DNA from: Escherichia phage EcNP1
DNA length: 64,000 nucleotides
Strand: one strand, 5' to 3'
Sequence record: NC_054910.1
Position 1 is the first letter of the stretch; each line of letters starts with the position of its first letter. This document shows, piece after piece, positions 1-49,706 of this stretch. The notes beneath the pieces are model-generated. The model saw nothing but the letters and a program-made list of their open reading frames with translations, was not told the origin of the DNA and ran no database searches. Position numbers and translations under genes: made by a program.

Positions 1-1070
1 AATTCATCGACTTCAGCTTCAACAATTTCATTACTATCAATAGCACCTAACTGATAAGCACGTTTAATAGCATCTCGGAATGGTTGATGCTTAAATAAAG
101 GACCCCAGAATGTAGTGCAATTGGTATCTTTTGCACGCCAAGATTTTTCTTCGCGAATCATCTCACCGGTTTCTTCGTCAAGAAATTCACGAGCATACCA
201 ACCATTTTTAGGTTTTACTACAAATCCTAATTCAAGAGCCATATCTAACAATCCAGAATAAGGATCGATACCACCGTCAAATTTAACATCAATAAAGAAT
301 TTACTTTTTTCTTTAACAGTACGAGATTTTTCTACATTTAGAACAAATTGATACCCCTGAAGATCAGAACCATCTTTAATCTGGCGCTTACCGATAATGA
401 ATACAGTATCAGCCGAATACATTACGCCTGTACCACCTGTCATCACGGTTTTACTAAACATTTCAATTGTTTCAATTGTATGGTTAACCGCAACACATGG
501 AATGTTTTTAATACTAAAATAAGGAGTAACAATACGGAATAATGACTTCAGTGATTTAGCACGAGTCATATCTGCCACAGATTTTTCATTCAAGGCATCT
601 TCCGTTTCTTTCTTAGAAGCCATATTACCGATTGAGTCGATGAATACAATAACTTTTTCACCGCGCTCAATAGCTTCAAGCTGATTCACCATATCAATTT
701 TCAGTTGTTCAACTGACTGGATTGGTGTATGAATTACTCGTTCCGGGTCAACTCCCATAGATCGCAAATAAGCTGGAGTGATACCAAATTCGCTATCATA
801 AAATAGACAAACTGCATCAGGATATTTGTTCAAATACGCCGCAACCATAGTCAAAGACATATTTGATTTAAAGTGTTTAGAAGGACCTGCAAAAATGGTT
901 AAACCAGACTGCATACCGCCATCAATCGCACCGGAAATAGCAATATTAAGCATTGGGATTTTTGTACGGATTACATCCTTTTCATTAAAGAATTTAGATG
1001 TAGTCAGTTCAGCAGTCATTTTAGAAGTGGAAGCTTTAATCAAACGGGATTTTAAATCTGCAATAGACAT
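1..1070 (-). CDS. uvsX: UvsX RecA-like recombinase, C-terminus beyond window start
   Basis: Manual reverse-complement translation from ATG at 1068-1070 gives MSIADLKSRLIKASTSKMTAELT..., matching T4 UvsX from memory; absent from ORF track because truncated. Confidence 0.88.
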   Translation of the reverse strand, partial: MSIADLKSRLIKASTSKMTAELTTSKFFNEKDVIRTKIPMLNIAISGAIDGGMQSGLTIFAGPSKHFKSNMSLTMVAAYLNKYPDAVCLFYDSEFGITPAYLRSMGVDPERVIHTPIQSVEQLKIDMVNQLEAIERGEKVIVFIDSIGNMASKKETEDALNEKSVADMTRAKSLKSLFRIVTPYFSIKNIPCVAVNHTIETIEMFSKTVMTGGTGVMYSADTVFIIGKRQIKDGSDLQGYQFVLNVEKSRTVKEKSKFFIDVKFDGGIDPYSGLLDMALELGFVVKPKNGWYAREFLDEETGEMIREEKSWRAKDTNCTTFWGPLFKHQPFRDAIKRAYQLGAIDSNEIVEAEVDE

Positions 1071-1146
1071 TCATTTTTCCATAGGCATCATTATATTTTC
1101 CTCACTGGTTAAAGATAGGGTAATTATAACACAATAAATTTAGGCA

Positions 1147-1989
1147 TTAATCAACTGCTATTGGATGAATAGCATTAAACTTATGAAACGCTTCTGATTT
1201 TTCTTTGCGCGAAACACACATGCGAAGAACCTTTAATGGCTCGTCTTCTTCACCTAATGATTTTCGTTTTTCAATATTAGAAGTTTTCCAACGAGCTTGC
1301 TCTGGAAACTCTCTATTGATTTGCTCAAGCGCTCTATTATGTTTAGAATTACTACGAATTGAGCTACATCCGCCTGGAGCTTGTGCTTTTCCAGATACAA
1401 CCAGATATTTGAACAAGGCCAAATGCGGATAACCTTGATTAATTAAATTGAGAAATGCATACATATCTTCGCATAAATCAATTTTTCCATACCCAATTTG
1501 TTCTGTTGTAAGTTTTCCGAGGTCATACCAGGTATTCGTGAATCCATATGAATTTTCACGATAATTACCCCAAGATGAAGTAATTTTAAAAATTGGTAGA
1601 CGAGCATGGCCATGATAATACCCGCAATCCATAGCATCTTCCACGTATTGAATCAATTCATAGAACTGTTCACGAGTTAATTGATTAATTTTATCTACGC
1701 AGCGACGATCATCTTTCTTTCGCATTGAACTCATACGAATAGTAGTATCATCATCAATCATCCAGATTCGTTGGCCTGCATACATATCAGTAATTGCTTT
1801 ACGAGTACCAGCAATTCCATTAACATCATCAGGAATAGTTATAATTTTAGCTCTAGACCCATAAGCATCATAATAAGCTTTTTCTTCGTGTTTACGTACT
1901 ACAATATGAGGTTCATAATCAGATGGAAACATATCAAGGGCAGAAACTGCCCCTACGCGTTGATAACTTGGAATTACGAATTGAATCAT
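1147..1989 (-). CDS. Glycosyltransferase with DxD-type motif (IDDDTT) at the T4 beta-gt position; not T4 beta-gt-like, possibly T2/T6-type HMC glucosyltransferase
   Basis: ORF track 282 aa from GTG at 1995; ATG at 1987-1989 overlaps gene 42 stop (ATGA); product assignment is inference. Confidence 0.8.
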   Translation of the reverse strand: MIQFVIPSYQRVGAVSALDMFPSDYEPHIVVRKHEEKAYYDAYGSRAKIITIPDDVNGIAGTRKAITDMYAGQRIWMIDDDTTIRMSSMRKKDDRRCVDKINQLTREQFYELIQYVEDAMDCGYYHGHARLPIFKITSSWGNYRENSYGFTNTWYDLGKLTTEQIGYGKIDLCEDMYAFLNLINQGYPHLALFKYLVVSGKAQAPGGCSSIRSNSKHNRALEQINREFPEQARWKTSNIEKRKSLGEEDEPLKVLRMCVSRKEKSEAFHKFNAIHPIAVD

Positions 1990-2726
1990 TTCCACTCACC
2001 GTTATAATCTTTTTTCGCAATATGAGTTTCGCCAGTTTTCCACCAATGGTCAACCAAATAAAAATGACGGGAATACACATGAAGGCTTCCGACATTCCAT
2101 ATAATGGAACCTGCTTTATACTGACGAGTTGAATCACCTGCATTCAAATCAGATACTAATTTATCTAGTACGTATTTTTGCCATGCATAATCATTACGGA
2201 ATCCGAAGACCACGTCATTTGAACGCATGCTTACTACTGCATTGACTTTCTTATCACGAATCAGATACTGTACTGTATTCGTACACATGAAATCTGACAT
2301 GCCATCTTTATTGTAGTCAAACTGCATGGATGGACGAGTATAAATCATGATACCACGTCGAGAATCAGGATTTTGACCAAGTTCAGCTAAACACATATCA
2401 TATTGGGCATAGTTATCTTCTGACCAGATGGCCCAACCATAATTCGAGTTAATTTCGCCTTTAGAAGATGCTACCTGCTGCCAAATCTTTGGTGTTTCAC
2501 CTGGAATATCTTTAACAAACAAACTTTGAGACTTATACCATTCAAGTTCACGCTGAATGTATTCATCATTAAGAGCGCCAAAAATAAAAGGTTCATCTGC
2601 TACAAATGATGCACCAATAATTTCAATAGTTTTAACACCGGTTTTATCAATTACGAAATCTTTTTCCTTTAATGCAAGACCCAAATCAAGACGGATTTCT
2701 TCAACTGTCATATAATCGTTAATCAT
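1986..2726 (-). CDS. 42: dCMP hydroxymethylase
   Basis: 246 aa, near-identical to T4 gp42 as recalled; ATG confirmed at 2724-2726. Confidence 0.95.
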   Translation of the reverse strand: MINDYMTVEEIRLDLGLALKEKDFVIDKTGVKTIEIIGASFVADEPFIFGALNDEYIQRELEWYKSQSLFVKDIPGETPKIWQQVASSKGEINSNYGWAIWSEDNYAQYDMCLAELGQNPDSRRGIMIYTRPSMQFDYNKDGMSDFMCTNTVQYLIRDKKVNAVVSMRSNDVVFGFRNDYAWQKYVLDKLVSDLNAGDSTRQYKAGSIIWNVGSLHVYSRHFYLVDHWWKTGETHIAKKDYNGEWK

Positions 2727-2879
2727 TTAAACCTCAATTGATGCATTCATATTTAACTTGTAACAGTAATAAACTCCACCCTATAATAAGCGTTGGAATC
2801 ATACAAGGAACTGTTACGCTATAGTATATACTTATTATAATCATCAAGATTAAAAGCAATACTGCTAAAATTTTGCTTT

Positions 2880-3131
2880 TCATTCCTTCTCTCTGATGAT
2901 AATTACTTGATTTTGCTGTACAGATTTTTTAGTTTCACCCGCAATTGACCAAATAAAGGTAATAAACCAACCAATAATTGACCAGTTAAACAGTAAAGAC
3001 GTGAAAAAGATTCCTACTGTCGATTTTGACCCACGCATCAAGGCGATGAACCACGGAAGCATGTATATAATAATAGCCAACACGCCTGAAACTAAAACCA
3101 TAAAAATTGAACCTGCTACTAAAGTTTCCAT
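2880..3131 (-). CDS. imm: Imm superinfection immunity membrane protein
   Basis: 83 aa hydrophobic protein, same size and position as T4 Imm; RBS GAGGAA upstream of ATG. Confidence 0.85.
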   Translation of the reverse strand: METLVAGSIFMVLVSGVLAIIIYMLPWFIALMRGSKSTVGIFFTSLLFNWSIIGWFITFIWSIAGETKKSVQQNQVIIIREKE

Positions 3132-3700: not shown

Positions 3701-6397
3701 TCAGCCAAACAGGAAGTCTAACGAAGCTTTTTCCTCATAGTCCATACCTGCCGATTCACACATGCCCGCAAGCGGTTTAACAAACGATTTTTGGAACAAA
3801 GTTGAGTAGTCAATCCAAGACAGTACATCAGAACGAATTTCTTTTGGAAGTTCTGTGCCCGACGGCCAAGCAATACACTTGTCACCAAATGGATTTCCCT
3901 CACGTAATGGAAGAACCATTACCTTATTTCCATCCAAAATTGGAGCTACACCTAAACCACTAACAGCTCGACGATAAGTTAGTACACCACGAATATGGAA
4001 CGGGCATTTAAACCCTGGCCAACCTTTATCATCATATTTCGCTATATCGTTCGCGGTTTTTACTTCAGCAATAACTTTATAATCAAGTTGACGATATTCT
4101 TTCTCAAAGTTCTTGTAGTATTCTTGGACAGACTCTTCGCCTTCCTGAAGAATACGACGAATACTTTCTTCGAGAGCTTCTTGTACTGCTTTTGGTGTTG
4201 AACTCTGCTGAGTTTCCATACCCATGATTTTTAGATGCGGTTCGGCAAATCGCTTATCTTCCATATCATAAACGTTCAGAGCATAACGTTTTTTCGCTTT
4301 CCAAAATCCACCAACACCCTTTGAACCAAGCGGAGGACAAGAAATAGCTTCACGGTCCATATGCATCAGATGCTCGCGGTTATTCATATAATCGCATAAC
4401 TCACGATATGCAACATCAATCATAGGTTCCATCTTTTTCTTACCGAACTGATTCATGAATTCAACTAAATCATTTTGTTCTTTAAAGCGATCAAGACCTA
4501 CTTTTTCAATAACTTTATCTACACAAACATATACCGAATCAGTATCACCTGCTGCGATGAAATCTTCACCATCAGTTCCACATACTTTATTCAGGTATTC
4601 ATTAATTTTACGAGCAATCCACTGAATACCAACTTGACCAAAAATTGTGATAGCAGTAGCATTTCGCAAATCATAGTAACGGAAATGAATATTACCAAGA
4701 GCACCATAAAGACTGTTGATAAGAATTTTACGGTTCAGCTGATTTGTGTTAGCAAGTGTAGCTGCTTTTTCACATTCTTCGATCAGACTATTAAGAACAG
4801 ATTCGGTGTAATTTGATAGTTCATTTAAGAAATCATCACTGAACTTAACATATCGTTCAACTTCTGGTTTAGTTGAACAAGACCCTGCGCCTTTCATAAT
4901 AATCTTTTTAATAGCTTCGGCATTCATTTCTTCAGCGAACATTTTCTTTTTCCAATCTTTACGCTGGAAAAATACTTTAGCGATTTCCTTTGGAATGATA
5001 CCTTCTTGGTGCTTATCATACATCCATCCATTCGGAGAGCAAGAATATTCATCACTTGGCTTAGGAGCTGTTCCTGCGATATATTCATGAATTGGATGAA
5101 CTTTAAACTGCCCACGAATAGTCTCAGGACTAATGTTAACCTGACGAATAATGCTAGGATACAGAGACGTCAAGTCAAAACTCATAATGTATCGACGAGC
5201 AATCGGTTTAGGTTCAAACACAAATGCACCTGGAAAACTCTGTTTAACGTGCGAACCTTGTTGAGGAATAACCTTATGTTCACCTTTCAGTGAGTTAAAA
5301 ATAATAGCATCCCAAGTTTTAATAGGACTCATTACACCAGAAAAAGGCATTTTAGCGTAATAAGACATACTTAAAACTAGATCGATAAACCCACGAATTT
5401 TATCAATTGCTTGAACTGATTCTACGTCAATAATGTTATAACTAATGTATCGTTGATGATTAGTCTCACGAAGTTTATTAATAGGACCATCGTACGGTAA
5501 TTTACCTTTTTTGGTTTCATGTTGAGCAACTGATTCCAAAGAGAACGATGGCAAATTAGTAAATGCGAATTTCTTGTACAAATCTAAATAATCAAGAATA
5601 GATACGCCATCAATAGAATAAATTTCTTTGCTACCGTACATATTTTGAATTAATTTAGATTTTACTCGACCGATTGGAGAGAAACGTTTCATACTGCGTT
5701 CACCGAGAACCATTTTAACACGATTCATGATATACGGAACGTCAAATCCCTCAATATTCCAACCGGTAAAAATAGCAGGTCGTTTCTGTTCCCAGAGATT
5801 AATATATTCCATGAGCATATCACGCTCATTATCAAATGGCATATAAATTACTCGGTCAAGAATTTCTTGAGGAACTTCATCACCACCTTCACAGTCAAGC
5901 TTAGCAGCTAACTTTGCATCCCATTTTGATACTGAACCGTACATTGAATTCAACAAATCAAAGACGTAAAAACGGTCGTCAATTGAATCATAATGAGTGA
6001 TAGCATCAATTTCATATTCTGCTTTCATTGGGTCAGGAAATTTATCACCAGTAACCTCAATGTCACAGTTAGCTACACGAACAAATTTTCGGTCATAAAC
6101 AATTTCTGAACCATATGTATCACTGATATAAGCGAGTTTAAAATCGTTCATACCAAGAGCTTCGAGACCGATGTCTTCCATTCGTTTCATCCAATCTCGT
6201 GCATCTTTCATTGATGGAAATTTTTGAGGAGCGCAATTTTTACCATAAATGTCTTTGTATTTTGACTCTTCCTTACAATGCCTAAACATAGTCGGAAGAT
6301 ATTCTACTTCACGAGTACGTTCCTTTCCATTTTCATCAATATAACGTTCAACAATATTATTTCCGACTGTTTCGATAGAGATATAAAATTCTTTCAT
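3701..6397 (-). CDS. 43: DNA polymerase
   Basis: 898 aa, same length as T4 gp43; family B polymerase motifs (e.g. YGDTDS); ATG at 6395-6397. Confidence 0.97.
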   Translation of the reverse strand: MKEFYISIETVGNNIVERYIDENGKERTREVEYLPTMFRHCKEESKYKDIYGKNCAPQKFPSMKDARDWMKRMEDIGLEALGMNDFKLAYISDTYGSEIVYDRKFVRVANCDIEVTGDKFPDPMKAEYEIDAITHYDSIDDRFYVFDLLNSMYGSVSKWDAKLAAKLDCEGGDEVPQEILDRVIYMPFDNERDMLMEYINLWEQKRPAIFTGWNIEGFDVPYIMNRVKMVLGERSMKRFSPIGRVKSKLIQNMYGSKEIYSIDGVSILDYLDLYKKFAFTNLPSFSLESVAQHETKKGKLPYDGPINKLRETNHQRYISYNIIDVESVQAIDKIRGFIDLVLSMSYYAKMPFSGVMSPIKTWDAIIFNSLKGEHKVIPQQGSHVKQSFPGAFVFEPKPIARRYIMSFDLTSLYPSIIRQVNISPETIRGQFKVHPIHEYIAGTAPKPSDEYSCSPNGWMYDKHQEGIIPKEIAKVFFQRKDWKKKMFAEEMNAEAIKKIIMKGAGSCSTKPEVERYVKFSDDFLNELSNYTESVLNSLIEECEKAATLANTNQLNRKILINSLYGALGNIHFRYYDLRNATAITIFGQVGIQWIARKINEYLNKVCGTDGEDFIAAGDTDSVYVCVDKVIEKVGLDRFKEQNDLVEFMNQFGKKKMEPMIDVAYRELCDYMNNREHLMHMDREAISCPPLGSKGVGGFWKAKKRYALNVYDMEDKRFAEPHLKIMGMETQQSSTPKAVQEALEESIRRILQEGEESVQEYYKNFEKEYRQLDYKVIAEVKTANDIAKYDDKGWPGFKCPFHIRGVLTYRRAVSGLGVAPILDGNKVMVLPLREGNPFGDKCIAWPSGTELPKEIRSDVLSWIDYSTLFQKSFVKPLAGMCESAGMDYEEKASLDFLFG

Positions 6398-6475: not shown

Positions 6476-6697
6476 TTAAATTAATACCAGCTGTCGGTGA
6501 AAAATTGTTAATCCATCTGCATTAATTGACTTAACTACTGCAGTAAAATGTTTTTGTTCTGGGTGAACTAATTTTTGAAATTCTACCTGAAATTTTAGTT
6601 GGAGGTTTTCTGGTAAATCAAAAAGTGTTTCTGTTGCAGAAAGATTATATTTTTCTTTAAGAGACGCCATGTATTCTTGTGGGGTTATAGCAGTCAT
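6476..6697 (-). CDS. Hypothetical protein between regA and 43
   Basis: ATG directly follows regA TAA stop (translational coupling); 73 aa; start chosen to avoid overlap. Confidence 0.45.
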   Translation of the reverse strand: MTAITPQEYMASLKEKYNLSATETLFDLPENLQLKFQVEFQKLVHPEQKHFTAVVKSINADGLTIFHRQLVLI

Positions 6698-6698
6698 A

Positions 6699-7067
6699 TT
6701 AATTACCAATCGTATATTTAGGAACGAGTTTCCATTCATGTTTTTGCTTAAAAGAAATAACTCGGAAGTTATTAGTTAAGTCTTTCATAAAAGTTCTTTG
6801 ACCGGGAGCGATTTCAATCAGTCCCCAATCTTCTAATAGCCATGCGATTGAATCACGACGAACTTCATCTTCTTCTGTCATTTCAACTTGACGACCATCC
6901 ATACGAAGCATTTCTTTAAAATGGACGATATAGTATAGTCCTTTTTTCTGGAGAATATGACAGGATTGATACAGAACTTTATCTTTATTATTAGCAATTC
7001 CCATGCGAGTCAAGGTTTCTTTAACTTTCAGAAAATCTTCAGGTTTTTTAAGAGTAATTTCAATCAT
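6699..7067 (-). CDS. regA: RegA translational repressor
   Basis: 122 aa, matches T4 RegA as recalled. Confidence 0.95.
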   Translation of the reverse strand: MIEITLKKPEDFLKVKETLTRMGIANNKDKVLYQSCHILQKKGLYYIVHFKEMLRMDGRQVEMTEEDEVRRDSIAWLLEDWGLIEIAPGQRTFMKDLTNNFRVISFKQKHEWKLVPKYTIGN

Positions 7068-13336: not shown

Positions 13337-13353
13337 AAGGGCCGAAGCCCTTT
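13337..13353 (-). other. C(UUCG)G hairpin after alpha-gt
   Basis: Plus aagggccgaagcccttt at the alpha-gt stop. Confidence 0.6.
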
Positions 13354-14554
13354 ATTTTGTAATAATGTCAAACTGTTCTTTAAAGCAGAAGCTTGAATCT
13401 TGATGCTGATACAAAAATTCATAAGCTTTTTCACGTTCGCGGTCATAAAGAGCTCGGTCAGATGACAGTTCTTTAATACGTTCAAATGTTAATTCCATGT
13501 CATTTTCATCAAACCAAACGATACCGCTATCATGAGAAATTAATGGAGTATTATCAACACGGAATTTTAAATTTTCGCCCGTAGATTTCCAAAATACTGG
13601 AATTGTTCCACATGCACCAAGCTCGAGATGAGTATATTCTAAAGAACGTTGTAGATATTTTTTATCTAATTTACTCAGCTGATAACCAAATCCGGATTTA
13701 CTCATGCGTTCAAGCATTTCGCTATTTACATAACGATCAAGAATTTGCGTTGGCAAATTAGGAGCAATTTTAATTTGGTCTACTTGATGAAGACGATAAT
13801 ACTCGTATGGAATTCCTTTTTCTTTAATAGGAATGAACGCTGGAGAACGTTCCAGACCTTCCATAATAGTACTTAGTCCTGCAGGTTTAAGATGTTTTTC
13901 GTGAAAATCAAACATCTGATAAAAGCCTTTCCATGTAGTAGTACGACCAATCCAACGATTGATATTCATGTTAATTTCAGAAACATCTTTCCAGTAGGTT
14001 GATCGAACCTTCGCAATATCCATAGGAGGCTGAAAGTTATATACGGTCGGTGCTTCTTCAATATCATCAAACAGTGAAACAGTTTCTGGATACCATTCTT
14101 TCATTAAAACTTTATTAAAATCACCATTATCAGAATGGCTAAAAATAACATCAGCTCGACGAACAGTTTCTTCTAATCCCAAATTTCGGCGTAAAGAAAG
14201 AGAAGAATGGTCATGCTGATAAACTACAACACGAACCGAAGGTTTAATGTTATCAATAATTTTTTTATAGTTATTAATGATGTCTTCTTCTACTGAAGTA
14301 GCAGGAACTGAATTGATAATTAGAATATCACAATCATTTACCAGCTTAAGTGTTTTATCGTATTCTTTTGCCAATAAAACCGGAATTGAAAATGACTTAT
14401 AATCATGTGCGCAATTACGAGTAAATGATTTATCTTTAGCATAAACCAAAGTTACTTCATGACCATTTTTAATAAACCAATCACGTTGCTCAAGAGAAAA
14501 TTTAGTTACACCACAACCTTCAAGACCTCGAGCCATAAAAATACATACTTTCAT
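13352..14554 (-). CDS. a-gt: DNA alpha-glucosyltransferase
   Basis: 400 aa, near-identical to T4 alpha-gt as recalled (MRICIFMARGLEGCGVTKF...). Confidence 0.95.
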   Translation of the reverse strand: MKVCIFMARGLEGCGVTKFSLEQRDWFIKNGHEVTLVYAKDKSFTRNCAHDYKSFSIPVLLAKEYDKTLKLVNDCDILIINSVPATSVEEDIINNYKKIIDNIKPSVRVVVYQHDHSSLSLRRNLGLEETVRRADVIFSHSDNGDFNKVLMKEWYPETVSLFDDIEEAPTVYNFQPPMDIAKVRSTYWKDVSEINMNINRWIGRTTTWKGFYQMFDFHEKHLKPAGLSTIMEGLERSPAFIPIKEKGIPYEYYRLHQVDQIKIAPNLPTQILDRYVNSEMLERMSKSGFGYQLSKLDKKYLQRSLEYTHLELGACGTIPVFWKSTGENLKFRVDNTPLISHDSGIVWFDENDMELTFERIKELSSDRALYDREREKAYEFLYQHQDSSFCFKEQFDIITK

Positions 14555-14605
14555 TTAATATCCTCATTGTTTTGGTTTATTTTACCAAAAATTTATAAAG
14601 CAATA

Positions 14606-18896: not shown

Positions 18897-19367
18897 TTAA
18901 TCATGTTTCCACACCCCATCGGTATTTGACCAAAGTCGCTGATTATCTGATCCTCGCCACAGCTTTTTGGTCGGAAGATTTTTCTCATACTTCCCATCAA
19001 TAATAACATCAACATATTTAAGCATTTCTAGTTGTTTAATATCTTCAAACTTATATCCTGTCCACAACCAAATGCTTTTATTGGGATAAAGATTTTTTAC
19101 TGTTTGAACAATGCAATGAACAACATCTCTATTATCAGGATAAAGAGGGTCTCCTCCAGTTATAGTTAATCCTTCTATATAATCATTATTCAAACATTTA
19201 ATTAATTGTTCCAGTGTTTCACCAGTGAATGGAACGCCATTTCTAGCATTCCACGTTGATTTATTATAACACCCTTCGCATTTATGCAAACAACCTGTAA
19301 CGAAAAGAACGACCCTGCATCCAGGGCCATTCACAAAATCGCAGGGATAAAATCTATCGTAATTCAT
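18897..19367 (-). CDS. nrdG: Anaerobic ribonucleotide reductase activase (radical SAM, CLHKCEGC)
   Basis: 156 aa; CxxxCxxC motif; T4 NrdG position. Confidence 0.92.
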   Translation of the reverse strand: MNYDRFYPCDFVNGPGCRVVLFVTGCLHKCEGCYNKSTWNARNGVPFTGETLEQLIKCLNNDYIEGLTITGGDPLYPDNRDVVHCIVQTVKNLYPNKSIWLWTGYKFEDIKQLEMLKYVDVIIDGKYEKNLPTKKLWRGSDNQRLWSNTDGVWKHD

Positions 19368-21181
19368 TGGTGTTTAACCCTATGCATGATTTCTTTATTT
19401 TTGCCGAGATTAAATCCGCGTTCATTCGGATTTCCCAAATAACCACAAGTTCTTCTTATTGTGTTCATCTTTTTAGGATCAGTTTCTCCACAAATAGAAC
19501 AAACAAACCCGTTTTCAGTAGGAGTCATTTCATGGGTACTTCCACACGTAAAACATTTATCTACTGGCATGTTAACACCAAAATAATCTAAATGTTGTGC
19601 AGCATAATCCCATACAGCCTCAAGACCTTTTAGGTTATTTTTCATATCAGGAAGTTCAACATAAGAAATGTGACCACCTGTCGCAATGAAATGATATGGG
19701 GCTTCGCGAGAAATCTTTTCAAATGGAGTAATATTTTCTTCTACCGAAACGTGGAAACTGTTAGTGTACCAGCCTTTATCGGTAACATCTTTTACACTTC
19801 CATATTTTTCGGTATCAAGTTTACAGAAGCGATAGCACAGGTTTTCAGCAGGTGTAGAATACAAACTAAAAGCAAAACCGGTTCTTTCAGTCCACTGCTT
19901 AAGATGAGCATTCATTTTAGTTAAAATTTCTTGTCCAATATCACGACCGACAAGAATATTCAATTCGTGAATACCAATGTATCCTAAGGACACTGAACTT
20001 CTACCGTTTTTAAATAACTCAATTATATCGTCATCAGGTTTAAGACGAACCCCGAATGCACCTTCTTGGTAAAGAATAGGAGCAACAGTAGCTTTAACTC
20101 CTTTTAAGGAACTAATTCTACACATCAATGCTTCAAAACATAAATCCATTCGCTCATTGAACAATTCGGCAAATTTCTGTTCATTGAACTGTGTTCCAAT
20201 ATAAGAATCTAGCGCAATGCGAGGAAGATTCAGTGTTACAACACCAAGATTATTACGTCCATCAAGAATTTCATTACCAGTCGAATCTTTCCATACACTC
20301 AAGAAACTACGACAACCCATTGGAGAAACAGGAATAGATGAACCGGTGATAGCTTTATTGTTCTTAGCCGAAATGATGTCAGGATACATTCTTTTACTTG
20401 CACACTCTAGAGCAAGCTGCTTAATATCATAGTTCGGATCGTCTTTATAAAGATTAACACCTTCTTCAACGAACATAACAAGTTTAGGGAAAATAGGAGT
20501 TATCCCGTCACGACCAAGACCTTTAATACGATTTTTCAGAATTGCTTTCTGAATCATTCGTTCAGTCCAGTCAGTTCCCGTACCAAATGTAATTGTTACA
20601 AAAGGCGTTTGTCCGTTTGAACTAAAGAGAGTATTTACTTCATATTCATAAGCTTGGAATGCATCGTATACGTCTTTTTCTGTTTTAGATTGGGCATAAT
20701 TCAATGCATCAGCGATTTGCCATTTTTCTGCATCCTCAATGTGTTTTGCGTAGGTGCGTTTAACATAAGGAGAAAGGACTTTATCTACATTCGCAAAAGT
20801 CGTTCCGCCATATTGATGAGAAGCAACCTGTGCAGTAATTTGTGCCATAATTGCAGTAGCAACGCCGATTGATTTAGGAGTTTCAATCTGTGCATTACCG
20901 AGCTTAAATCCGTTCTCAAGCATTCCTTTTAAATCTACTAAACAACAATTAGTAAATGGAAGAGCAGGGGAATAATCAATATCGTGGAAATGGATAATTC
21001 CGCTTTCATGCGCTTTCATAATAAAAGACGGGACCATATTTTTGGCAATGTGTTTAGACACAATACCAGCCATAAGGTCCCGTTGAGTTGGAAAAACACG
21101 AGAATCTTTATTAGCATTCTCGTTTAAAAGGTCTTTATTAGTTTTATGAATCAATCCTTCAATTTCTTTTTCAATTGTCAT
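19364..21181 (-). CDS. nrdD: Anaerobic ribonucleoside-triphosphate reductase, uninterrupted
   Basis: Contiguous 605 aa ORF; C-terminal glycyl-radical and Zn-ribbon region (CGYLG, CxxC); no intron. Confidence 0.95.
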   Translation of the reverse strand: MTIEKEIEGLIHKTNKDLLNENANKDSRVFPTQRDLMAGIVSKHIAKNMVPSFIMKAHESGIIHFHDIDYSPALPFTNCCLVDLKGMLENGFKLGNAQIETPKSIGVATAIMAQITAQVASHQYGGTTFANVDKVLSPYVKRTYAKHIEDAEKWQIADALNYAQSKTEKDVYDAFQAYEYEVNTLFSSNGQTPFVTITFGTGTDWTERMIQKAILKNRIKGLGRDGITPIFPKLVMFVEEGVNLYKDDPNYDIKQLALECASKRMYPDIISAKNNKAITGSSIPVSPMGCRSFLSVWKDSTGNEILDGRNNLGVVTLNLPRIALDSYIGTQFNEQKFAELFNERMDLCFEALMCRISSLKGVKATVAPILYQEGAFGVRLKPDDDIIELFKNGRSSVSLGYIGIHELNILVGRDIGQEILTKMNAHLKQWTERTGFAFSLYSTPAENLCYRFCKLDTEKYGSVKDVTDKGWYTNSFHVSVEENITPFEKISREAPYHFIATGGHISYVELPDMKNNLKGLEAVWDYAAQHLDYFGVNMPVDKCFTCGSTHEMTPTENGFVCSICGETDPKKMNTIRRTCGYLGNPNERGFNLGKNKEIMHRVKHQ

Positions 21182-22438: not shown

Positions 22439-22759
22439 TTATAGCGTAATCCATTCTCGTATTGTCTGAGTTACTACACGTTCACGGGGCTCGACTAATT
22501 CAACAGTCGGAACTGCATAATACCAGTCAGAATGGTAAGAACCTGAACGGCATTCATTTACGGAAACATGTACATTATGTTTTGGGCTAAAATAAACACA
22601 CTGCCGATATTGACATTTGCCATCTTGTACCCAGTCTTCTATTTCGACAGGTTTAAGATAGTCTGAAAAATCAAAATCATAATTTTCTGAAAATGCATCA
22701 TGGTCTTCAATGATTTCACTCAGAACTGCATCAACATCTAATTTATTTTCAATAGTCAT
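22439..22759 (-). CDS. Hypothetical protein
   Basis: ORF track 106 aa. Confidence 0.6.
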   Translation of the reverse strand: MTIENKLDVDAVLSEIIEDHDAFSENYDFDFSDYLKPVEIEDWVQDGKCQYRQCVYFSPKHNVHVSVNECRSGSYHSDWYYAVPTVELVEPRERVVTQTIREWITL

Positions 22760-23064
22760 TTATCACACCACCAACTCGACACTTCAAAATCAGGTTCACC
22801 GTTTTCCCAATACCAAGGACCCACTGGATGCCAATCACCATGCTCATCTTCTTCAAATTCTTCAGATTCAAGCCCAACGTATTGCCATTGGACTTCATAA
22901 GCAGTACCACCGATTACAACCGTGTTCTCGCCATACGGGTTAGCCACAACAAAGTCTATACCTTCTGCTTTAGCTAACCAAACCATATATTCATATAGTT
23001 TATATTCCAGTTCGTCTTCTGTGCCATCGCCTAGAAAAATAGTCTGTTCATTTAATTCTATCAT
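22756..23064 (-). CDS. Hypothetical acidic protein
   Basis: ORF track 102 aa. Confidence 0.6.
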   Translation of the reverse strand: MIELNEQTIFLGDGTEDELEYKLYEYMVWLAKAEGIDFVVANPYGENTVVIGGTAYEVQWQYVGLESEEFEEDEHGDWHPVGPWYWENGEPDFEVSSWWCDK

Positions 23065-23324
23065 TTAAAGTATTCCCGCAATTGGTCAAATCCACCAATA
23101 TGACTTCCATCAGGAGCAAATACTTGTGGCATCGTCAATCCGATTTGAGTATCACGACTTAGTTTCGTCAGAAGCTCAGCAATTTTCTCGTCATCAAAAA
23201 CACCTTTTTCCGGCATAATGTTGATAAATTCAAACGGCTGTTTCTTCACAGTCAAAAGACGTTTTGCATTATCGCAATACACACATTTGTGGATGTTGCT
23301 ATCATAGCCATATACTTTAAACAT
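23061..23324 (-). CDS. nrdC: Glutaredoxin-like thioredoxin (CVYC)
   Basis: 87 aa, matches T4 NrdC as recalled. Confidence 0.9.
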   Translation of the reverse strand: MFKVYGYDSNIHKCVYCDNAKRLLTVKKQPFEFINIMPEKGVFDDEKIAELLTKLSRDTQIGLTMPQVFAPDGSHIGGFDQLREYFK

Positions 23325-23325
23325 A

Positions 23326-23568
23326 TTATTCCTTAATTCCTAGTACTTGTTTAAAAGTCTCGTCGTAATCAAGACTTTGACCTGTTTGTTCTTTATGTTT
23401 GTATATAATATCACTTACTTCTGATAGCATATTTTTATATGAACGAGTTAAAGCAGATTTAAGCACGCTGTATCTATCAGGAAATTTACCGTGTTCATTA
23501 TAATACGCTATTGCTAATTCACGGACTGCCTTTTCAGCAGTCTCCATATATTCTTTACGCTTTGTCAT
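23326..23568 (-). CDS. Hypothetical protein
   Basis: ORF track 80 aa. Confidence 0.6.
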
Positions 23569-30858: not shown

Positions 30859-31872
30859 TCATTTATAATAACTTCGGTGGTTTTCAAGATATACCTCTTC
30901 AACGAACTTGTCCCAGAACTTCATGTCTACCTTATCAGGCATACCGTTCTTAGCTGCCTGGATGGCTAGGACTTCAACCAAATCAACAGTATCTTCAAGA
31001 AGTTCTTGAACTTCTTTAAATGGTAATTCACCGGCTTTAATCAGCTTAATGATAGAGGCTTCGCGCAATGGGAACGCCAAATCACCTGTTTGGTAGATTT
31101 CCATCAATTGATACCCTGCGCGATAAGCATGACTCAGAGCTTTCCAGTCAATACCTTCATTAGCTTCAGCCTTACGAGCACGTTCACCATATTCCGCATC
31201 GAGCTTATTCAGAGATTGCTTGAGCTCGATTAAAGACAAGGTGGTTTGGTACTTACGTCCAAGAACAGTATAGAACGTTTGAGGACCTGTTTTCTCGTGG
31301 TTATGGAATACCCATTCACAGAACTCGTTTTCAGGAAGCCGATGTTTAATATCTACAATTTTAGTACGACGTTGTCCTTGTGTTCCATCTTCTCGGTAAT
31401 CAACCCACTGATCGGGGATTTGATTAACTACTTTCAATACATTACGCAATGCAGCCAAACGAGAACCCTTAACACCATATTTAGAAGCTTGCTTACGCAC
31501 ATATCCTAAATAGGCTTTCATGTTAGTTGTATAAAACCGTGAACGATTGTCTTGGATAAATTTCCATACATCAGGCAAATCAGATTTAACTACTAGTTCA
31601 GGCGGAGTGTGAAGCATATCCAATGCTACAGTTTCACCGTCTGCTGCTAATTTAAAGAAATACTTAAGACTGTATAGTTCATGGTCAATATCATCTTTAG
31701 TGTTTTTAGATGATGTGTTGTTAGTGTTTTTACTCATATGCTCTTTAACATTTCCGATAAGAATATCGCGAGCAGGAGGAACAAAGATTTCTTTAAAATC
31801 TACATCAGATTCTGGAGTAGAAGTTCCATAAAGATGACTACCAAAATAGCTTTTCATTACTGTTTTCATCAT
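30859..31872 (-). CDS. Nucleotidyltransferase-fold protein (GS-x10-DVD motif)
   Basis: 337 aa; N-terminal YFGSHLYGTSTPESDVDF resembles Pol-beta-type NTase signature. Confidence 0.78.
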   Translation of the reverse strand: MMKTVMKSYFGSHLYGTSTPESDVDFKEIFVPPARDILIGNVKEHMSKNTNNTSSKNTKDDIDHELYSLKYFFKLAADGETVALDMLHTPPELVVKSDLPDVWKFIQDNRSRFYTTNMKAYLGYVRKQASKYGVKGSRLAALRNVLKVVNQIPDQWVDYREDGTQGQRRTKIVDIKHRLPENEFCEWVFHNHEKTGPQTFYTVLGRKYQTTLSLIELKQSLNKLDAEYGERARKAEANEGIDWKALSHAYRAGYQLMEIYQTGDLAFPLREASIIKLIKAGELPFKEVQELLEDTVDLVEVLAIQAAKNGMPDKVDMKFWDKFVEEVYLENHRSYYK

Positions 31873-32342
31873 TCAGCCTTATATTCAATAACAGGACATA
31901 CTTTAGCTTTACGAGCTTTTAAAAATTCGACGATAATAGATTTCTTGGGTTGAATAGGAGGTAAACCTTTATACGCCCTATCAATATTTTCTACATGTAA
32001 AGCATAATCCTTTTTCCATTTATAATCTTTATATTTTTCATGCAATTGTGCAGGAATAACAAATGAACCGATAATAAGTAAAACAAGCAAAATGGCAAGT
32101 ATAAATGCTGCTGGAATAAGAGTCCATAAACTACCAAAAATAAGCCATTTCTGTATGATTTCTGCACAGATGATAGTTAGACCTGCGAGTATAGTACATC
32201 CGAAAAAAGAAACGAAAAATGTAGGAATAACAATAGACCAAAAATACGCGCATAGTGTCTTAGGCCGTTTCCATTCATCATTAAACATTTTGAATAATTT
32301 ATAGTGCCAAGAGCTTTCATTAATAATCATAATTATAATCAT
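31869..32342 (-). CDS. Membrane protein (multiple TM helices)
   Basis: ORF track 157 aa, strongly hydrophobic. Confidence 0.65.
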   Translation of the reverse strand: MIIIMIINESSWHYKLFKMFNDEWKRPKTLCAYFWSIVIPTFFVSFFGCTILAGLTIICAEIIQKWLIFGSLWTLIPAAFILAILLVLLIIGSFVIPAQLHEKYKDYKWKKDYALHVENIDRAYKGLPPIQPKKSIIVEFLKARKAKVCPVIEYKAE

Positions 32343-32860
32343 CCTTTCATTGAAGGTGTAACAGTTGTTAAATACTTAATCATAGCTTCAGCTTCTGATT
32401 TTGATAATGAAATTTCTCCATTGTTTTGACGAATAGAAATAAAATCTGGATGACGGTCACCACCAGCTTTCAAAACACACATATAAGTATCAGTTTCATC
32501 TTCAATATTTGAAATGATTGAAGCAGTTCCACATGAATGCGGTTTTTGATAAATCAATACGGCTTTTCTTCCACCGTTTGACTGTTCATAAACTTTTAAC
32601 ACATCAAACAAATCACTTCTTTTATCAATAGCTAAGATGTTGTTTTCATCTTCAATGTTAAATCCTTCGGATACTTCATAAAGTGTCACCCATAAATCAC
32701 CTATATCGATAGTAGCATTTTCCTTTCCATGACTTTCAAGAGTATGACAAATTTTCTTGATTTCGTCATAACTCATTTTAATAATATCATCTCCTTGAAT
32801 AAGGAAGATGTCATTTTTAAATTCAACACGAATTAAACCACTTTCACTTGAAATAAACAT
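32339..32860 (-). CDS. Hypothetical protein (paralog of 32867..33424)
   Basis: ORF track 173 aa; C-terminal similarity to neighbor. Confidence 0.68.
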   Translation of the reverse strand: MFISSESGLIRVEFKNDIFLIQGDDIIKMSYDEIKKICHTLESHGKENATIDIGDLWVTLYEVSEGFNIEDENNILAIDKRSDLFDVLKVYEQSNGGRKAVLIYQKPHSCGTASIISNIEDETDTYMCVLKAGGDRHPDFISIRQNNGEISLSKSEAEAMIKYLTTVTPSMKG

Positions 32861-41409: not shown

Positions 41410-41664
41410 TTAAGCTTTACCGCCAGAAATAATTCCGAAGTTGTTAAAATCGTATCCAATATCGTCAACATCTACTTTAGGGCTTACTACAACATAAGCA
41501 ATTTCACTACGTTTTGCATAGGTGTTTATTTCTTTACCATTGCCGCCTGAGAAAGAATACCCATTACGTTTTAATGAGCCAAAATCTTCGGCATCACCAA
41601 TGAAAGCTTTAACTTTAAATTTGGGGCCTTTGGCATCTGCTTCAGCGATAAATTCTTGATACAT
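41410..41664 (-). CDS. ipII: Internal protein II-like (CTS variant MYQEFIAEA)
   Basis: 84 aa; RBS AAGGAAAAA; CTS-like N-terminus. Confidence 0.75.
   Translation of the reverse strand: MYQEFIAEADAKGPKFKVKAFIGDAEDFGSLKRNGYSFSGGNGKEINTYAKRSEIAYVVVSPKVDVDDIGYDFNNFGIISGGKA

Positions 41665-42148: not shown

Positions 42149-42149
<1 letters not shown>
42111..42149 (-). promoter_or_regulatory. T4-type early promoter
   Basis: Plus aatgtatagtatca...agtaaac (42141-42147). Confidence 0.65.
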
Positions 42150-42951
<802 letters not shown>

Positions 42952-45865: not shown

Positions 45866-45902
45866 GAAGAATTATATCATGCTATTTAAGAGATGTAAAC
45901 TA
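45866..45902 (-). promoter_or_regulatory. T4-type early promoter
   Basis: Plus gaattatatcat...tgtaaac (45894-45900). Confidence 0.6.
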
Positions 45903-46402
45903 TTTTTAATTTTACAAATTCGTTCAGCTTCTTCAACAGCGGCGGCGATAATGCTTTTAGCTATAGGAGTACTAATACTAGTAGCTTTTACACTTAACAC
46001 GATTTCTTTATCTTTACCAGGCCAACCCCACGATTTTTCACCGTGAGTGCCTTTAATTACAGCAGACACCTCAAGTGAGCATCCATTATCATATGTTTTT
46101 ACATTGACAACCCAAGGTTCACTTTTCTCAATCGGTTTCTCAATCGGTTTATCCCAGTAAATATTAAGAATACGTGGGACATCAAATTTGGCAGGACAAA
46201 TCTTAACTGTAAGACCTTCGCTTTCTAGCCAATTAATAAGAGGGCGTTCATACAGGCGACGATGTGGGCTTGGGATTCGACAAGCCTTATGTCCGTTGCT
46301 TGCGGCTTCACTAAGCTGTTCTAATACCTGCTTTTGCATTATTGATAAGATACCATCAAAAGATTTTTCGGAAGTTTCATTCAGTTCGGTATAAAGAGAC
46401 AT
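45872..46402 (-). CDS. Hypothetical protein
   Basis: ORF track 176 aa. Confidence 0.68.
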   Translation of the reverse strand: MSLYTELNETSEKSFDGILSIMQKQVLEQLSEAASNGHKACRIPSPHRRLYERPLINWLESEGLTVKICPAKFDVPRILNIYWDKPIEKPIEKSEPWVVNVKTYDNGCSLEVSAVIKGTHGEKSWGWPGKDKEIVLSVKATSISTPIAKSIIAAAVEEAERICKIKNSLHLLNSMI

Positions 46403-46961: not shown

Positions 46962-47525
46962 TTATTTATCTAGTTTAGTTATTATAGCTTCTGCGGCAGC
47001 TTTTAGCTTAGATGCAGTGTTAATACGATTTTTAATTTCAGTATACGCATCGCCAAGAACATCAAGGCTATCAGAATAAACACTTACACTATTGCGTTCG
47101 CTATTTGAAATAAAACCTTTAGTTTTACGATCAAAATCGGTGTACACGTCTTGAAGATCACGGGCAGCCTTCTTTGCATCATCCAATGCATCAAGAGCTT
47201 TATTCAAAGCATTAACATATTTTTTAGTGTCAAACATATTCTTAGAAATTTTAACAGGTGCACGTTCAGGAGTAGCTAAGGCAGATTTAGGAACATGAGC
47301 GCCAGATGCCAATTTCTTAGAAATTTTGAAAAACGCTTTATTGAATTTATTTTCTTGACTCATCGTAAAAGAACTATTATCGATGTTATACATTTCAATA
47401 GCTTTAGCTTTCCACTTAAGAAAATCGCCACGGTCTTTTGGGTCTAATTGAAAGAATACTTTAGTAAGATCTGCTTCAGACGGTAATTTTGCTGCTTCGG
47501 TCAAAAATTCGGCATAGGTTTTCAT
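46962..47525 (-). CDS. Internal-protein-like protein with CTS (MKTYAEFLTEA)
   Basis: 187 aa; RBS AAGGA; CTS-like N-terminus. Confidence 0.75.
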   Translation of the reverse strand: MKTYAEFLTEAAKLPSEADLTKVFFQLDPKDRGDFLKWKAKAIEMYNIDNSSFTMSQENKFNKAFFKISKKLASGAHVPKSALATPERAPVKISKNMFDTKKYVNALNKALDALDDAKKAARDLQDVYTDFDRKTKGFISNSERNSVSVYSDSLDVLGDAYTEIKNRINTASKLKAAAEAIITKLDK

Positions 47526-47650: not shown

Positions 47651-48123
47651 TTATTTGATTTGTTTAGCAGACCAAATGCGGTCTTTAATAATTTTTTGGA
47701 TGTCTTCAACATACTCTAGGTCATGAGCATGTGGGTTGTCTTTGAAACTATAAGCACGGGCTAACTTTTGGCCTTCGGTTTTGATTACTAAAAGCTCTTT
47801 AAGGATAGCTTCATATTTAGCGATAATTCCTTTAACAATATTTTTTTCTTGTGCAGCTTTAGGATCTGCTTTAGGAGCAGGTTTACCGGAAGGTTTTTCG
47901 AAAGCCGCACCAGTAGCAACCAGGCTTTTCCAGGCGGTGGTAACATAGTTACCCACAAAGCCTTCAGCTCTCATATCGTCGTAGAACTTGTACCTGGATT
48001 CGTCAGAAGCATCTTTATAAGAATATTTACCAGCTTTAATAGCAGCAGTTGCTACAGCGCGAACATCTGAAGCGGATGCTTCATTTAACACCACTTCATT
48101 TAAAATTGAGCATATGATTTCAT
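47651..48123 (-). pseudogene. Internal-protein-like gene disrupted by frameshift
   Basis: ATG 48121-48123 with RBS AGGAAA encodes MKSYAQF then TAA; 147-codon ORF continues in another frame; ~14-nt tandem duplication at junction. Confidence 0.45.
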
Positions 48124-48511: not shown

Positions 48512-48862
48512 TTAATATTCTTTTAAAGCATCAATTTGTTCACGGCGTTTACGCCATAAATCAATTGCTTCATACGCAGATTCAGCATTTCGAATTGGAC
48601 GGCATTTATATAAAGACTTGTGATTTTGATATTGTGTAGATAACGGAATTTTATCTAAAAGGTCTTTACGTTCAAAATATTCGTAACCATCTAAACCAAA
48701 TGAACGATTTTTGAGAAATTGCCAATGACCATATTCGTTTTCGACATAAACATAATCTGCATGCTGATAAAGTAAATTAATTACACGTTCAGAAATAACA
48801 GTGTCATTATGATTAAAATAGAATGTTAAATCATGAACTACTAAATAAACATTACCTTTCAT
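48512..48862 (-). CDS. Hypothetical protein
   Basis: ORF track 116 aa; RBS GAGGAAAAT. Confidence 0.65.
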   Translation of the reverse strand: MKGNVYLVVHDLTFYFNHNDTVISERVINLLYQHADYVYVENEYGHWQFLKNRSFGLDGYEYFERKDLLDKIPLSTQYQNHKSLYKCRPIRNAESAYEAIDLWRKRREQIDALKEY

Positions 48863-48878
48863 ATTTTCCTCACTTAAT

Positions 48879-48954
48879 TGGTCGAGGCAGTAGGGATCGA
48901 ACCTACGACCTAGGACTTAGAAGGTCCTTGCTCTTCCTTCTGAGCTATGCCTCG
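48879..48954 (-). tRNA. tRNA-Arg (anticodon UCU)
   Basis: Manual fold: acceptor CGAGGCA/UGCCUCG, T-arm GGTTCGATCC, anticodon loop CUUCUAA, encoded CCA. Confidence 0.85.
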
Positions 48955-48958
48955 GATT

Positions 48959-49033
48959 TGGCGGACGTGATAGGATTCGAACCTATAACCAATCGCTTAA
49001 CAGGCGATCGCTCTGCCATTGAGCTACACATCC
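48959..49033 (-). tRNA. tRNA-Asn (anticodon GUU)
   Basis: Manual fold: acceptor GGAUGUG/CACGUCC with G-U, anticodon stem AUCGC/GCGAU, loop CUGUUAA. Confidence 0.8.
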
Positions 49034-49037
49034 AAAT

Positions 49038-49124
49038 TGGTGGGGAGTGATGGAGTCGAACCACCCGAGTCGCAATGACAATGGATTTACAGTCCACACC
49101 GCTACCTCTACGGAATAACTCCCC
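49038..49124 (-). tRNA. tRNA-Tyr (anticodon GUA), long variable arm
   Basis: Manual fold: 87 nt, acceptor GGGGAGU/ACUCCCC, anticodon loop CUGUAAA. Confidence 0.8.
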
Positions 49125-49133
49125 AAATTAATT

Positions 49134-49208
49134 TGGTGGCCCTGGGTGGAATTGAACCACCATCTGGCGATTATGAGTCGCTTGCTTGAACCTTCCAGCT
49201 ACAGGGCC
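49134..49208 (-). tRNA. tRNA with anticodon CAU (Ile2-type or Met)
   Basis: Manual fold: acceptor GGCCCUG/CAGGGCC, perfect T-arm, anticodon loop CUCAUAA; occupies the T4 tRNA-Ile position. Confidence 0.75.
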
Positions 49209-49209
49209 T

Positions 49210-49285
49210 TGGTGCTGATTGACGGAATCGAACCGCCGACCTTCTCATTACAAGTGAGTTGCTCTACCTACTGAGCTAAATCAGC
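49210..49285 (-). tRNA. tRNA-Thr (anticodon UGU)
   Basis: Manual fold: acceptor GCUGAUU/AAUCAGC, anticodon loop CUUGUAA. Confidence 0.85.
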
Positions 49286-49290
49286 AAAAC

Positions 49291-49380
49291 TGGCGGAGGC
49301 GATAGGATTCGAACCTATGAGTCGCCGGAGCGACTGCCGGTTTTCAAGACCGGTGCATTAAACCACTCTGCCACGCCTCC
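49291..49380 (-). tRNA. tRNA-Ser (anticodon UGA), long variable arm
   Basis: Manual fold: 90 nt, acceptor GGAGGCG/CGCCUCC, anticodon stem CCGGU/ACCGG, loop CUUGAAA. Confidence 0.85.
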
Positions 49381-49382
49381 AG

Positions 49383-49456
49383 TCTCCATACAAGGATTTG
49401 AACCTTGGACCTCCTGATCCCAAATCAGGCGCTCTACCAAACTGAGCTACACGGAG
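49383..49456 (-). tRNA. tRNA-Pro (anticodon UGG)
   Basis: Manual fold: acceptor with two G-U pairs, anticodon loop UUUGGGA, CCA not encoded. Confidence 0.8.
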
Positions 49457-49466
49457 TAAATTAAAT

Positions 49467-49540
<74 letters not shown>

Positions 49541-49545
49541 AAATT

Positions 49546-49632
49546 TGGTGCGAGAAGTGGGACTCGAACCCACAAGGAAATCATTCCGCAGCATTTTAAG
49601 TGCTGTGCCTTTACCAATTTGACCATTCTCGC
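49546..49632 (-). tRNA. tRNA-Leu (anticodon UAA), long variable arm
   Basis: Manual fold: 87 nt, acceptor GCGAGAA/UUCUCGC, anticodon loop CUUAAAA. Confidence 0.85.
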
Positions 49633-49633
49633 G

Positions 49634-49706
49634 CTGGGAATAAAGGACTCGAACCTTTGCATCCTGGAATCAAAATCCAGTGCCTTACCAACTTGGCTAA
49701 TTCCCA
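49634..49706 (-). tRNA. tRNA-Gln (anticodon UUG)
   Basis: Manual fold: acceptor UGGGAAU/AUUCCCA, anticodon loop UUUUGAU. Confidence 0.85.

Follow-up and report, generated by a model that had tools for sequence, protein, structure and literature searches.

We find that the gene at 1147-1989 on the minus strand of the analysed DNA, a 64-kb stretch of the Escherichia phage EcNP1 genome that we call the window, almost certainly encodes the enzyme of T2/T6 type by which alpha-glucosylated hydroxymethylcytosine (hmC) in phage DNA receives its second glucose. The gene is known as ba-gt, ggt or TAGT (beta-glucosyl-HMC-alpha-glucosyltransferase), and its identification draws on the open reading frame, homology, PHROG and Pfam matches, a fold model and dN/dS. 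What the analysis establishes for the window gene is its orthology, its locus with the partner genes, its fold and conserved motif, and the action of purifying selection. It is a textbook gene at its usual locus, and the assignment is correct but already known: the distribution, GT-A fold and anti-defence role of the enzyme have been presented in papers from 2024 (PMC11078745) and 2026 (PMC13216743, PMC13390438).

Identity of the glucosyltransferase

In a BLASTP-type comparison, which an earlier sequence-only reading of this DNA had proposed, the window protein was 98% identical to T2 protein EcT2_00043 over its full length (274 of 280 residues). It differs from the proteins of two T6 records at seven to eight positions (about 97% identity), and in one of these records, MH550421, the orthologue is annotated as ggt at the same place. 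The protein of Shigella phage SF2-1, annotated as beta-glucosyl-HMC-alpha-glucosyltransferase, is 100% identical. At the level of families, residues 1-275 match PHROG 842 (beta-glucosyl-HMC-alpha-glucosyltransferase) at 2e-88, and the match to Pfam PF20691 (TAGT, TET-Associated Glycosyltransferase) reached 38.3 bits against a gathering cutoff of 27.5. A search of 5.8 billion proteins yielded 12 clusters at 29-99% identity, ten of which carry a precomputed PF20691 match.

Comparing the gene to five orthologues, we obtained dN/dS values of 0.03-0.08 at a dS of about 0.2, which indicates strong purifying selection at the sequence level. Given this and the PHROG match, we conclude that this is a real gene and not a chance open reading frame. 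A Pfam 'RNA_binding' match to the protein (E 0.15) lies under the cutoff and was regarded as noise, and no NCBIfam model matched ba-gt or alpha-gt.

The sequence-only reading had noted that the protein does not resemble T4 beta-glucosyltransferase, and this is borne out: the best BLASTP match to T4 beta-gt (from NC_000866) has E = 3.3, there is no PF09198 match, and the two-Rossmann-domain fold of GT-B enzymes is absent from the fold model, so that we rejected an identity with T4 beta-gt. A tblastn search of the 64-kb window detected neither a beta-gt nor a segA homologue. The further proposal, a non-T4 DNA glycosyltransferase such as one for T2/T6-type gentiobiosylation, is supported by the similarity to the T2 protein, the shared locus, the presence of alpha-gt and the absence of beta-gt from the window.

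Genomic context

The minus-strand open reading frame spans 1147-1995 and encodes 282 residues when counted from a GTG. An in-frame ATG at 1989 gives 280 residues plus stop, that is 1147-1989, and the records of T2, TB37, CP and Geo likewise show a CDS of 843 nt whose first bases are shared with the end of their gene 42 homologue. We thereby recovered the exact coordinates of the 280-residue gene with an IDDDTT motif that had been described between gene 42 and uvsX. Its ATG overlaps the TGA stop of gene 42 in the sequence ATGA (1986-1989, minus strand), and translational coupling of the two genes is probable.

The order uvsX (1-1070), ba-gt (1147-1989) and gene 42 (1986-2726), all on the minus strand, is the same in T2 and T6. 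Gene 42 encodes a dCMP hydroxymethylase with 95.5% protein identity to T4 gp42 and has weak matches to the thymidylate synthase family; past it lie imm and then gene 43 (3701-6397). The downstream neighbour uvsX, whose 3' end lies beyond the window, has a product called recombinase in all matching records. Over 1-1058 its DNA is 85.8% identical to T4 uvsX (22498-23555), compared to about 95.5% for the block from gene 42 to gene 43, a difference that points to a mosaic boundary where the glucosyltransferase gene lies. The sequence-only reading had also called alpha-gt conserved; in agreement with this, the DNA alpha-glucosyltransferase gene at 13352-14554 (minus strand) is 90.5% identical to its T4 counterpart and 91% identical to T6 alpha-gt.

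The 3.4-kb locus has 95-99% identity to several hundred Tequatrovirus genomes, and over its first 25 kb the window is 99.6% identical to Escherichia phage vB_EcoM_Nami. A scan of 900-3000 for promoters and terminators gave counts no higher than those in shuffled sequence. We observed a G+C-rich hairpin at 1935-1955 (minus strand) within ba-gt codons 12-18, with a 7-bp stem (GGGGCAG ttt CTGCCCT) that the scan extends to nine pairs when flanking bases are included. T2 and T6 have exactly the same hairpin, in spite of variation at synonymous sites close by; a single terminator-like site of this kind is no excess over shuffled sequence.

Conserved residues and predicted fold

The IDDDTT motif (residues 78-83, 1741-1758 on the minus strand) is of the DxD type and constitutes the predicted site for metal and the UDP diphosphate. 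D79, D80 and D81 are invariant in the alignment of 11 homologues, which reaches down to 30% identity. Further invariant positions among the 11 sequences are I6, P7, S8, Y9, R11, D175, G206, G207 and R212. The pair E174-D175 in 'CEDMY' (1465-1470, minus strand) is a candidate for the catalytic base on the grounds of conservation and the model, with E174 kept in at least 90% of homologues.

An AlphaFold2 model built from the 11-sequence alignment (mean pLDDT 80.3, pTM 0.81) consists of a single GT-A domain, and its top structural matches are GT-A enzymes. Residues 132-149 form one disordered loop of low confidence. The DDD residues directly follow beta-strand 74-77, the canonical position of the GT-A DxD, and E174-D175 lie at the start of helix 174-184. 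The window enzyme thus has a GT-A fold according to the model. By what is known of GT-A enzymology, the aspartates of DDD would hold Mg or Mn together with the UDP diphosphate, and by analogy to the ED/TED motif of GT2 enzymes, E174 or D175 might act as the base for an inverting transfer. The reaction would be inverting because UDP-alpha-glucose must yield a beta linkage. No solved structure was found to be related by sequence, either with phmmer or with hmmsearch and a profile of the 11 homologues; both gave only chance matches (E ≥ 0.13; TLR4, RNA-binding proteins). Likewise, the protein has no match to Pfam Glycos_transf_2 at E ≤ 1.

As polysaccharides, teichoic acids and lipid-linked sugars are the substrates of the nearest solved relatives by fold, and the sequence of the window protein reveals no DNA-binding domain, one might suppose that the enzyme modifies a glycan of the host envelope or a protein of the phage. 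We regard such a non-DNA target as extremely improbable. Deletion of the T6 orthologue alters the sugar content of the DNA and its sensitivity to enzymes (PMC11078745; bioRxiv 10.64898/2026.02.25.707755), so that the orthologue acts on DNA by genetic evidence and the possibility of a non-DNA glycosyltransferase, which the sequence-only reading had considered, falls away. Furthermore, the window gene is embedded in the cluster for the hmC pathway and replication, where it overlaps gene 42. A T2/T6-type enzyme on DNA is thus the preferred reading, and the enzyme, with its GT-A fold, would have to bind a sugar carried by double-stranded DNA in a mode unlike any solved structure.

Proposed pathway and expected DNA composition

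The enzyme was described in the 1960s. The DNA of T2 and T6 alpha-gt mutants is unglucosylated, and therefore the second enzyme is inactive on bare hmC. In the pathway that we propose, the gene 42 product would form hydroxymethyl-dCMP, which the phage polymerase would build into DNA, and most of the hmC would receive a glucose in alpha linkage from alpha-gt. The ba-gt product would then take another glucose from the UDP-glucose of the host and join it to the first by a beta-1,6 linkage, resulting in gentiobiosyl-hmC, and hmC out of the reach of alpha-gt would be left unglucosylated, as no beta-gt is encoded in the 64-kb window.

This scheme follows what is known from related phages, where gentiobiosyl-hmC is the product of ba-gt working after alpha-gt (PMC6024577; PMC13216743). 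Deletion of the T6 orthologue abolishes gentiobiosyl-hmC; the DNA of T6 without ba-gt is degradable in vitro by Brig1, an alpha-glucosyl-hmC glycosylase, and the phage is more sensitive in vivo (PMC11078745). In addition, the BapA hydrolase frees glucose from the DNA of T6 delta-g-gt but not from wild-type T6 DNA (bioRxiv 10.64898/2026.02.25.707755). In new isolates of Tequatrovirus with alpha-GT and TAGT but no beta-GT, HPLC/MS detected 5-hmdC, alpha-glucosyl-hmdC and alpha-gentiobiosyl-hmdC, with the beta-glucosyl form undetected (PMC13390438). As no beta-gt is present in the 64-kb window, we infer that the virion DNA of the window phage would contain hmC, alpha-glucosyl-hmC and gentiobiosyl-hmC, without beta-glucosyl-hmC, and this is what annotators can expect for this phage.

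It is conceivable that the window enzyme uses another acceptor or linkage than the T2 and T6 enzymes, either by glucosylating hmC directly or by extending beta-glucosyl-hmC. TAGT homologues adjoin beta-gt homologues in many other phages, among them CC31, S16, Merlin, PM123 and Muldoon, and TAGT occurs alone in 288 of 753 genomes (PMC13216743), so that the acceptor specificity of the family is not uniform or not settled. Yet the TAGTs paired with beta-gt mostly belong to a branch at 47-65% identity, the exception being a 96%-identical copy in PM123, whereas the window copy falls into the 96-100% branch of T2, T6 and TB37 and has alpha-gt as its sole partner in the 64-kb window. The combination of TAGT and alpha-gt has, moreover, measured alpha-gentiobiosyl products (PMC13390438). 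We therefore give a different acceptor or linkage next to no chance and retain the transfer to alpha-glucosyl-hmC.

Sequence variants and the extent of di-glucosylation

The share of gentiobiosyl-hmC ranges from 5% in T2 over about 40% in Geo, EL and BGP to about 2/3-72% in T6 and TB37. We compared the enzymes of TB37, CP, Geo, BGP and T2 to the window protein. In TB37, whose DNA contains about one third hmdC and two thirds gentiobiosyl residues with no beta-glucosyl form (PMC13390438), the differences from the window are S23T, K33E, K92R and I101V. CP, which belongs to the composition group of TB37 (PMC13390438), differs at five positions. Geo and BGP, with a ratio of hmdC to glucosyl to gentiobiosyl of 1:2:2 (PMC13390438), have nine differences that include M89I, R95K, C97R, A202S and Q203H. 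T2, with 5% gentiobiosyl (PMC6024577), has six, namely R11H, S23T, K33E, K92R, I101V and P251S.

Codon 11 of ba-gt encodes His in T2 alone (AP018813, gene at 4283-5125) and Arg in the window (1957-1959). R11 is invariant among the window protein and ten homologues from the database, which reach to an identity of 30%, and T6 AP018814 keeps it as well. From this comparison, R11H is a candidate reason for the 5% gentiobiosylation of T2 against the 72% of T6. Candidates for substitutions that set the ratio are R11H in T2 and M89I, R95K, C97R, A202S and Q203H in Geo and BGP, the intermediate group. That a few natural substitutions in the enzyme set the ratio of mono- to di-glucosylation is, overall, a proposal that we consider unlikely. 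If it holds, the window allele (R11, K92, I101) would represent one more natural form of the enzyme, with a ratio particular to it.

For the window phage, a high gentiobiosyl-hmC share like that of T6 and TB37 seems moderately probable from the sequence comparison, because R11 is kept, the Geo and BGP changes are absent, and the enzyme is nearly identical to that of TB37. The extent is not reliably readable from sequence, as di-glucosylation varies widely among near-identical enzymes.

The two public T6 records each contain a different change. In MH550421, ba-gt (4138-4980) has a TAG at codon 10 (Q10amber), and the annotated CDS begins at a later Met and has 261 residues. In AP018814 (2135-2974), one GAT of the DDD motif is missing (D79 deletion). 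Y40N, D55G and R106H are common to both records. These changes are possibly inactivating, and they could be lesions of laboratory stocks or sequencing errors.

The amber codon and the lost aspartate, which make a loss in laboratory stocks seem possible, raise the question of whether ba-gt is an inactive relic and the DNA only mono-alpha-glucosylated; T2, whose gene is intact but whose DNA contains no more than about 5% gentiobiosyl-hmC (PMC6024577), would fit the same picture. The window copy, in contrast, is full length and keeps all invariant residues including R11, D79-D81 and D175, it is 100% identical to the gene of another isolate, and its dN/dS of 0.03-0.08 argues against decay. We thus consider a relic very unlikely and maintain that the window gene most likely encodes an active second glucosyltransferase.

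Distribution of ba-gt and T4-type beta-gt

At an identity of at least 90%, we found ba-gt in 471 phage records (470 at ≥ 95%) and the T4-type beta-gt in 29. T4 is therefore the exception, as a paper from 2026 has also noted, and the arrangement called 'non-T4' is the norm. A similar picture has been obtained for 753 phage genomes that contain glycosyltransferases: six have the T4 combination of alpha-GT and beta-GT, and the vast majority pair TAGT with alpha-GT or beta-GT (PMC13216743). Within Tequatrovirus, most phages have the ba-gt arrangement, which has been described before (PMC13216743; PMC13390438).

Other differences between the window and T4

Several mobile elements of T4 are absent from the window: segA, mobB, mobC, the nrdD group I intron with I-TevII, mobD and segB. 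The sites without T4 mobile elements are 1059-2003, 14545-14570, 19367, 20643-20646, 31874-32841 and 48513-49188, and nrdD is one uninterrupted open reading frame of 605 residues (19364-21181). Window-specific genes, defined as genes without a counterpart in the T4 interval of 21-80 kb, lie at 46962-47525 and 47651-48094 (minus strand) and also in 31869-32860 and 45872-46402. Among them are two tandem paralogues of PHROG 2280, a family of unknown function, a PHROG 944 membrane protein with PHROG 1502 in place of mobD, and PHROG 6869.

The tRNA cluster (48879-49706, minus strand) contains ten genes compared to eight in T4, the extra ones being tRNA-Asn(GTT) and tRNA-Tyr(GTA), and a tRNA called 'Met(CAT)' corresponds to the position of tRNA-Ile in T4. 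Between regA and gene 43, about 220 nt at 6476-6739 (minus strand) are absent from T4, T2 and T6. This insert contains a small open reading frame of up to 87 residues, phage BGP has the same insert with the annotation 'Phage protein', and it sits where T4 has the translational operator region of gene 43.

The denV/ipII/ipIII region is rearranged compared to T4. The genes for internal head proteins at 41410-41664 and 42149-42445 (minus strand) belong to PHROGs 2667 and 3499 and are unlike T4 ipII. These differences may be relevant, since internal proteins act against nucleases directed at glucosylated DNA.

Implications of the DNA chemistry

The DNA chemistry bears on restriction enzymes, GmrSD/BrxU-type nucleases, the Brig1 and Brig3/BapA glycosylase defences and CRISPR nucleases, and it also affects the sequencing and cloning of phage DNA. 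The di-glucosyl ratio, with its spread from 5% to 72% between phages, alters how sensitive a phage is to defences, among them Brig1 and BapA. The remaining questions, on the recognition of DNA and acceptor and on this spread, concern the whole enzyme family and not the window gene in particular.

Comparison with known systems

The closest known systems are those of T2 and T6. Their ba-gt, like that of the window, encodes 280 residues, lies between gene 42 and uvsX with the ATGA overlap, and has alpha-gt and gene 42 as partners; the DDD and ED residues are in common. The window gene is free of the Q10amber and D79-deletion lesions of the two T6 records.

T4 beta-gt shares with the window gene the map position downstream of gene 42, and both enzymes use UDP-glucose in an inverting reaction that forms a beta linkage on phage hmC DNA. 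T4 beta-gt (b-gt, PF09198, PDB 1JG7) is a GT-B enzyme of 351 residues, whereas that of the window has 280 residues and the GT-A fold (PMC13216743). The acceptor of T4 beta-gt is bare hmC and not alpha-glucosyl-hmC, and the T4 locus contains segA and beta-gt where the window has ba-gt.

More distant TAGTs, found in T4-like phages of Klebsiella, Enterobacter and Serratia and in PhiJL001-like phages, belong to the same Pfam family and usually adjoin a gene 42 homologue. Their identity to the window protein is 24-77%, and they keep I6, P7, S8, Y9, R11, D79-D81, D175 and G206-G207. Many of them lie beside a beta-gt homologue or are the sole DNA glycosyltransferase, and their acceptors may differ (PMC13216743).

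GT2-like GT-A enzymes (WrtF 9omh, TarP 6h1j, GlfT2 4fix and cellulose synthase) have 8-16% identity over the aligned residues. They use glycan or lipid acceptors, whereas the predicted acceptor of the window enzyme is a sugar on duplex DNA, and the C-terminal 80 residues of the window enzyme have no assigned counterpart in them. We did not assign the enzyme to CAZy GT2, as the likeness is at the level of the fold only, with none by sequence or profile.

Lastly, Mosigvirus (RB69-type) is another case of T4-like phages in which a modified cytosine receives sugars in two steps, here from DNA arabinosyltransferases (PMC13390438). The RB69-type system uses 5-hydroxy-dC from a diverged gene 42 homologue, another sugar and other loci. 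We rejected RB69-type arabinosylation for the window phage, whose gene 42 product is 95.5% identical to the T4 hydroxymethylase and whose glycosyltransferase is of the T2/T6 type.
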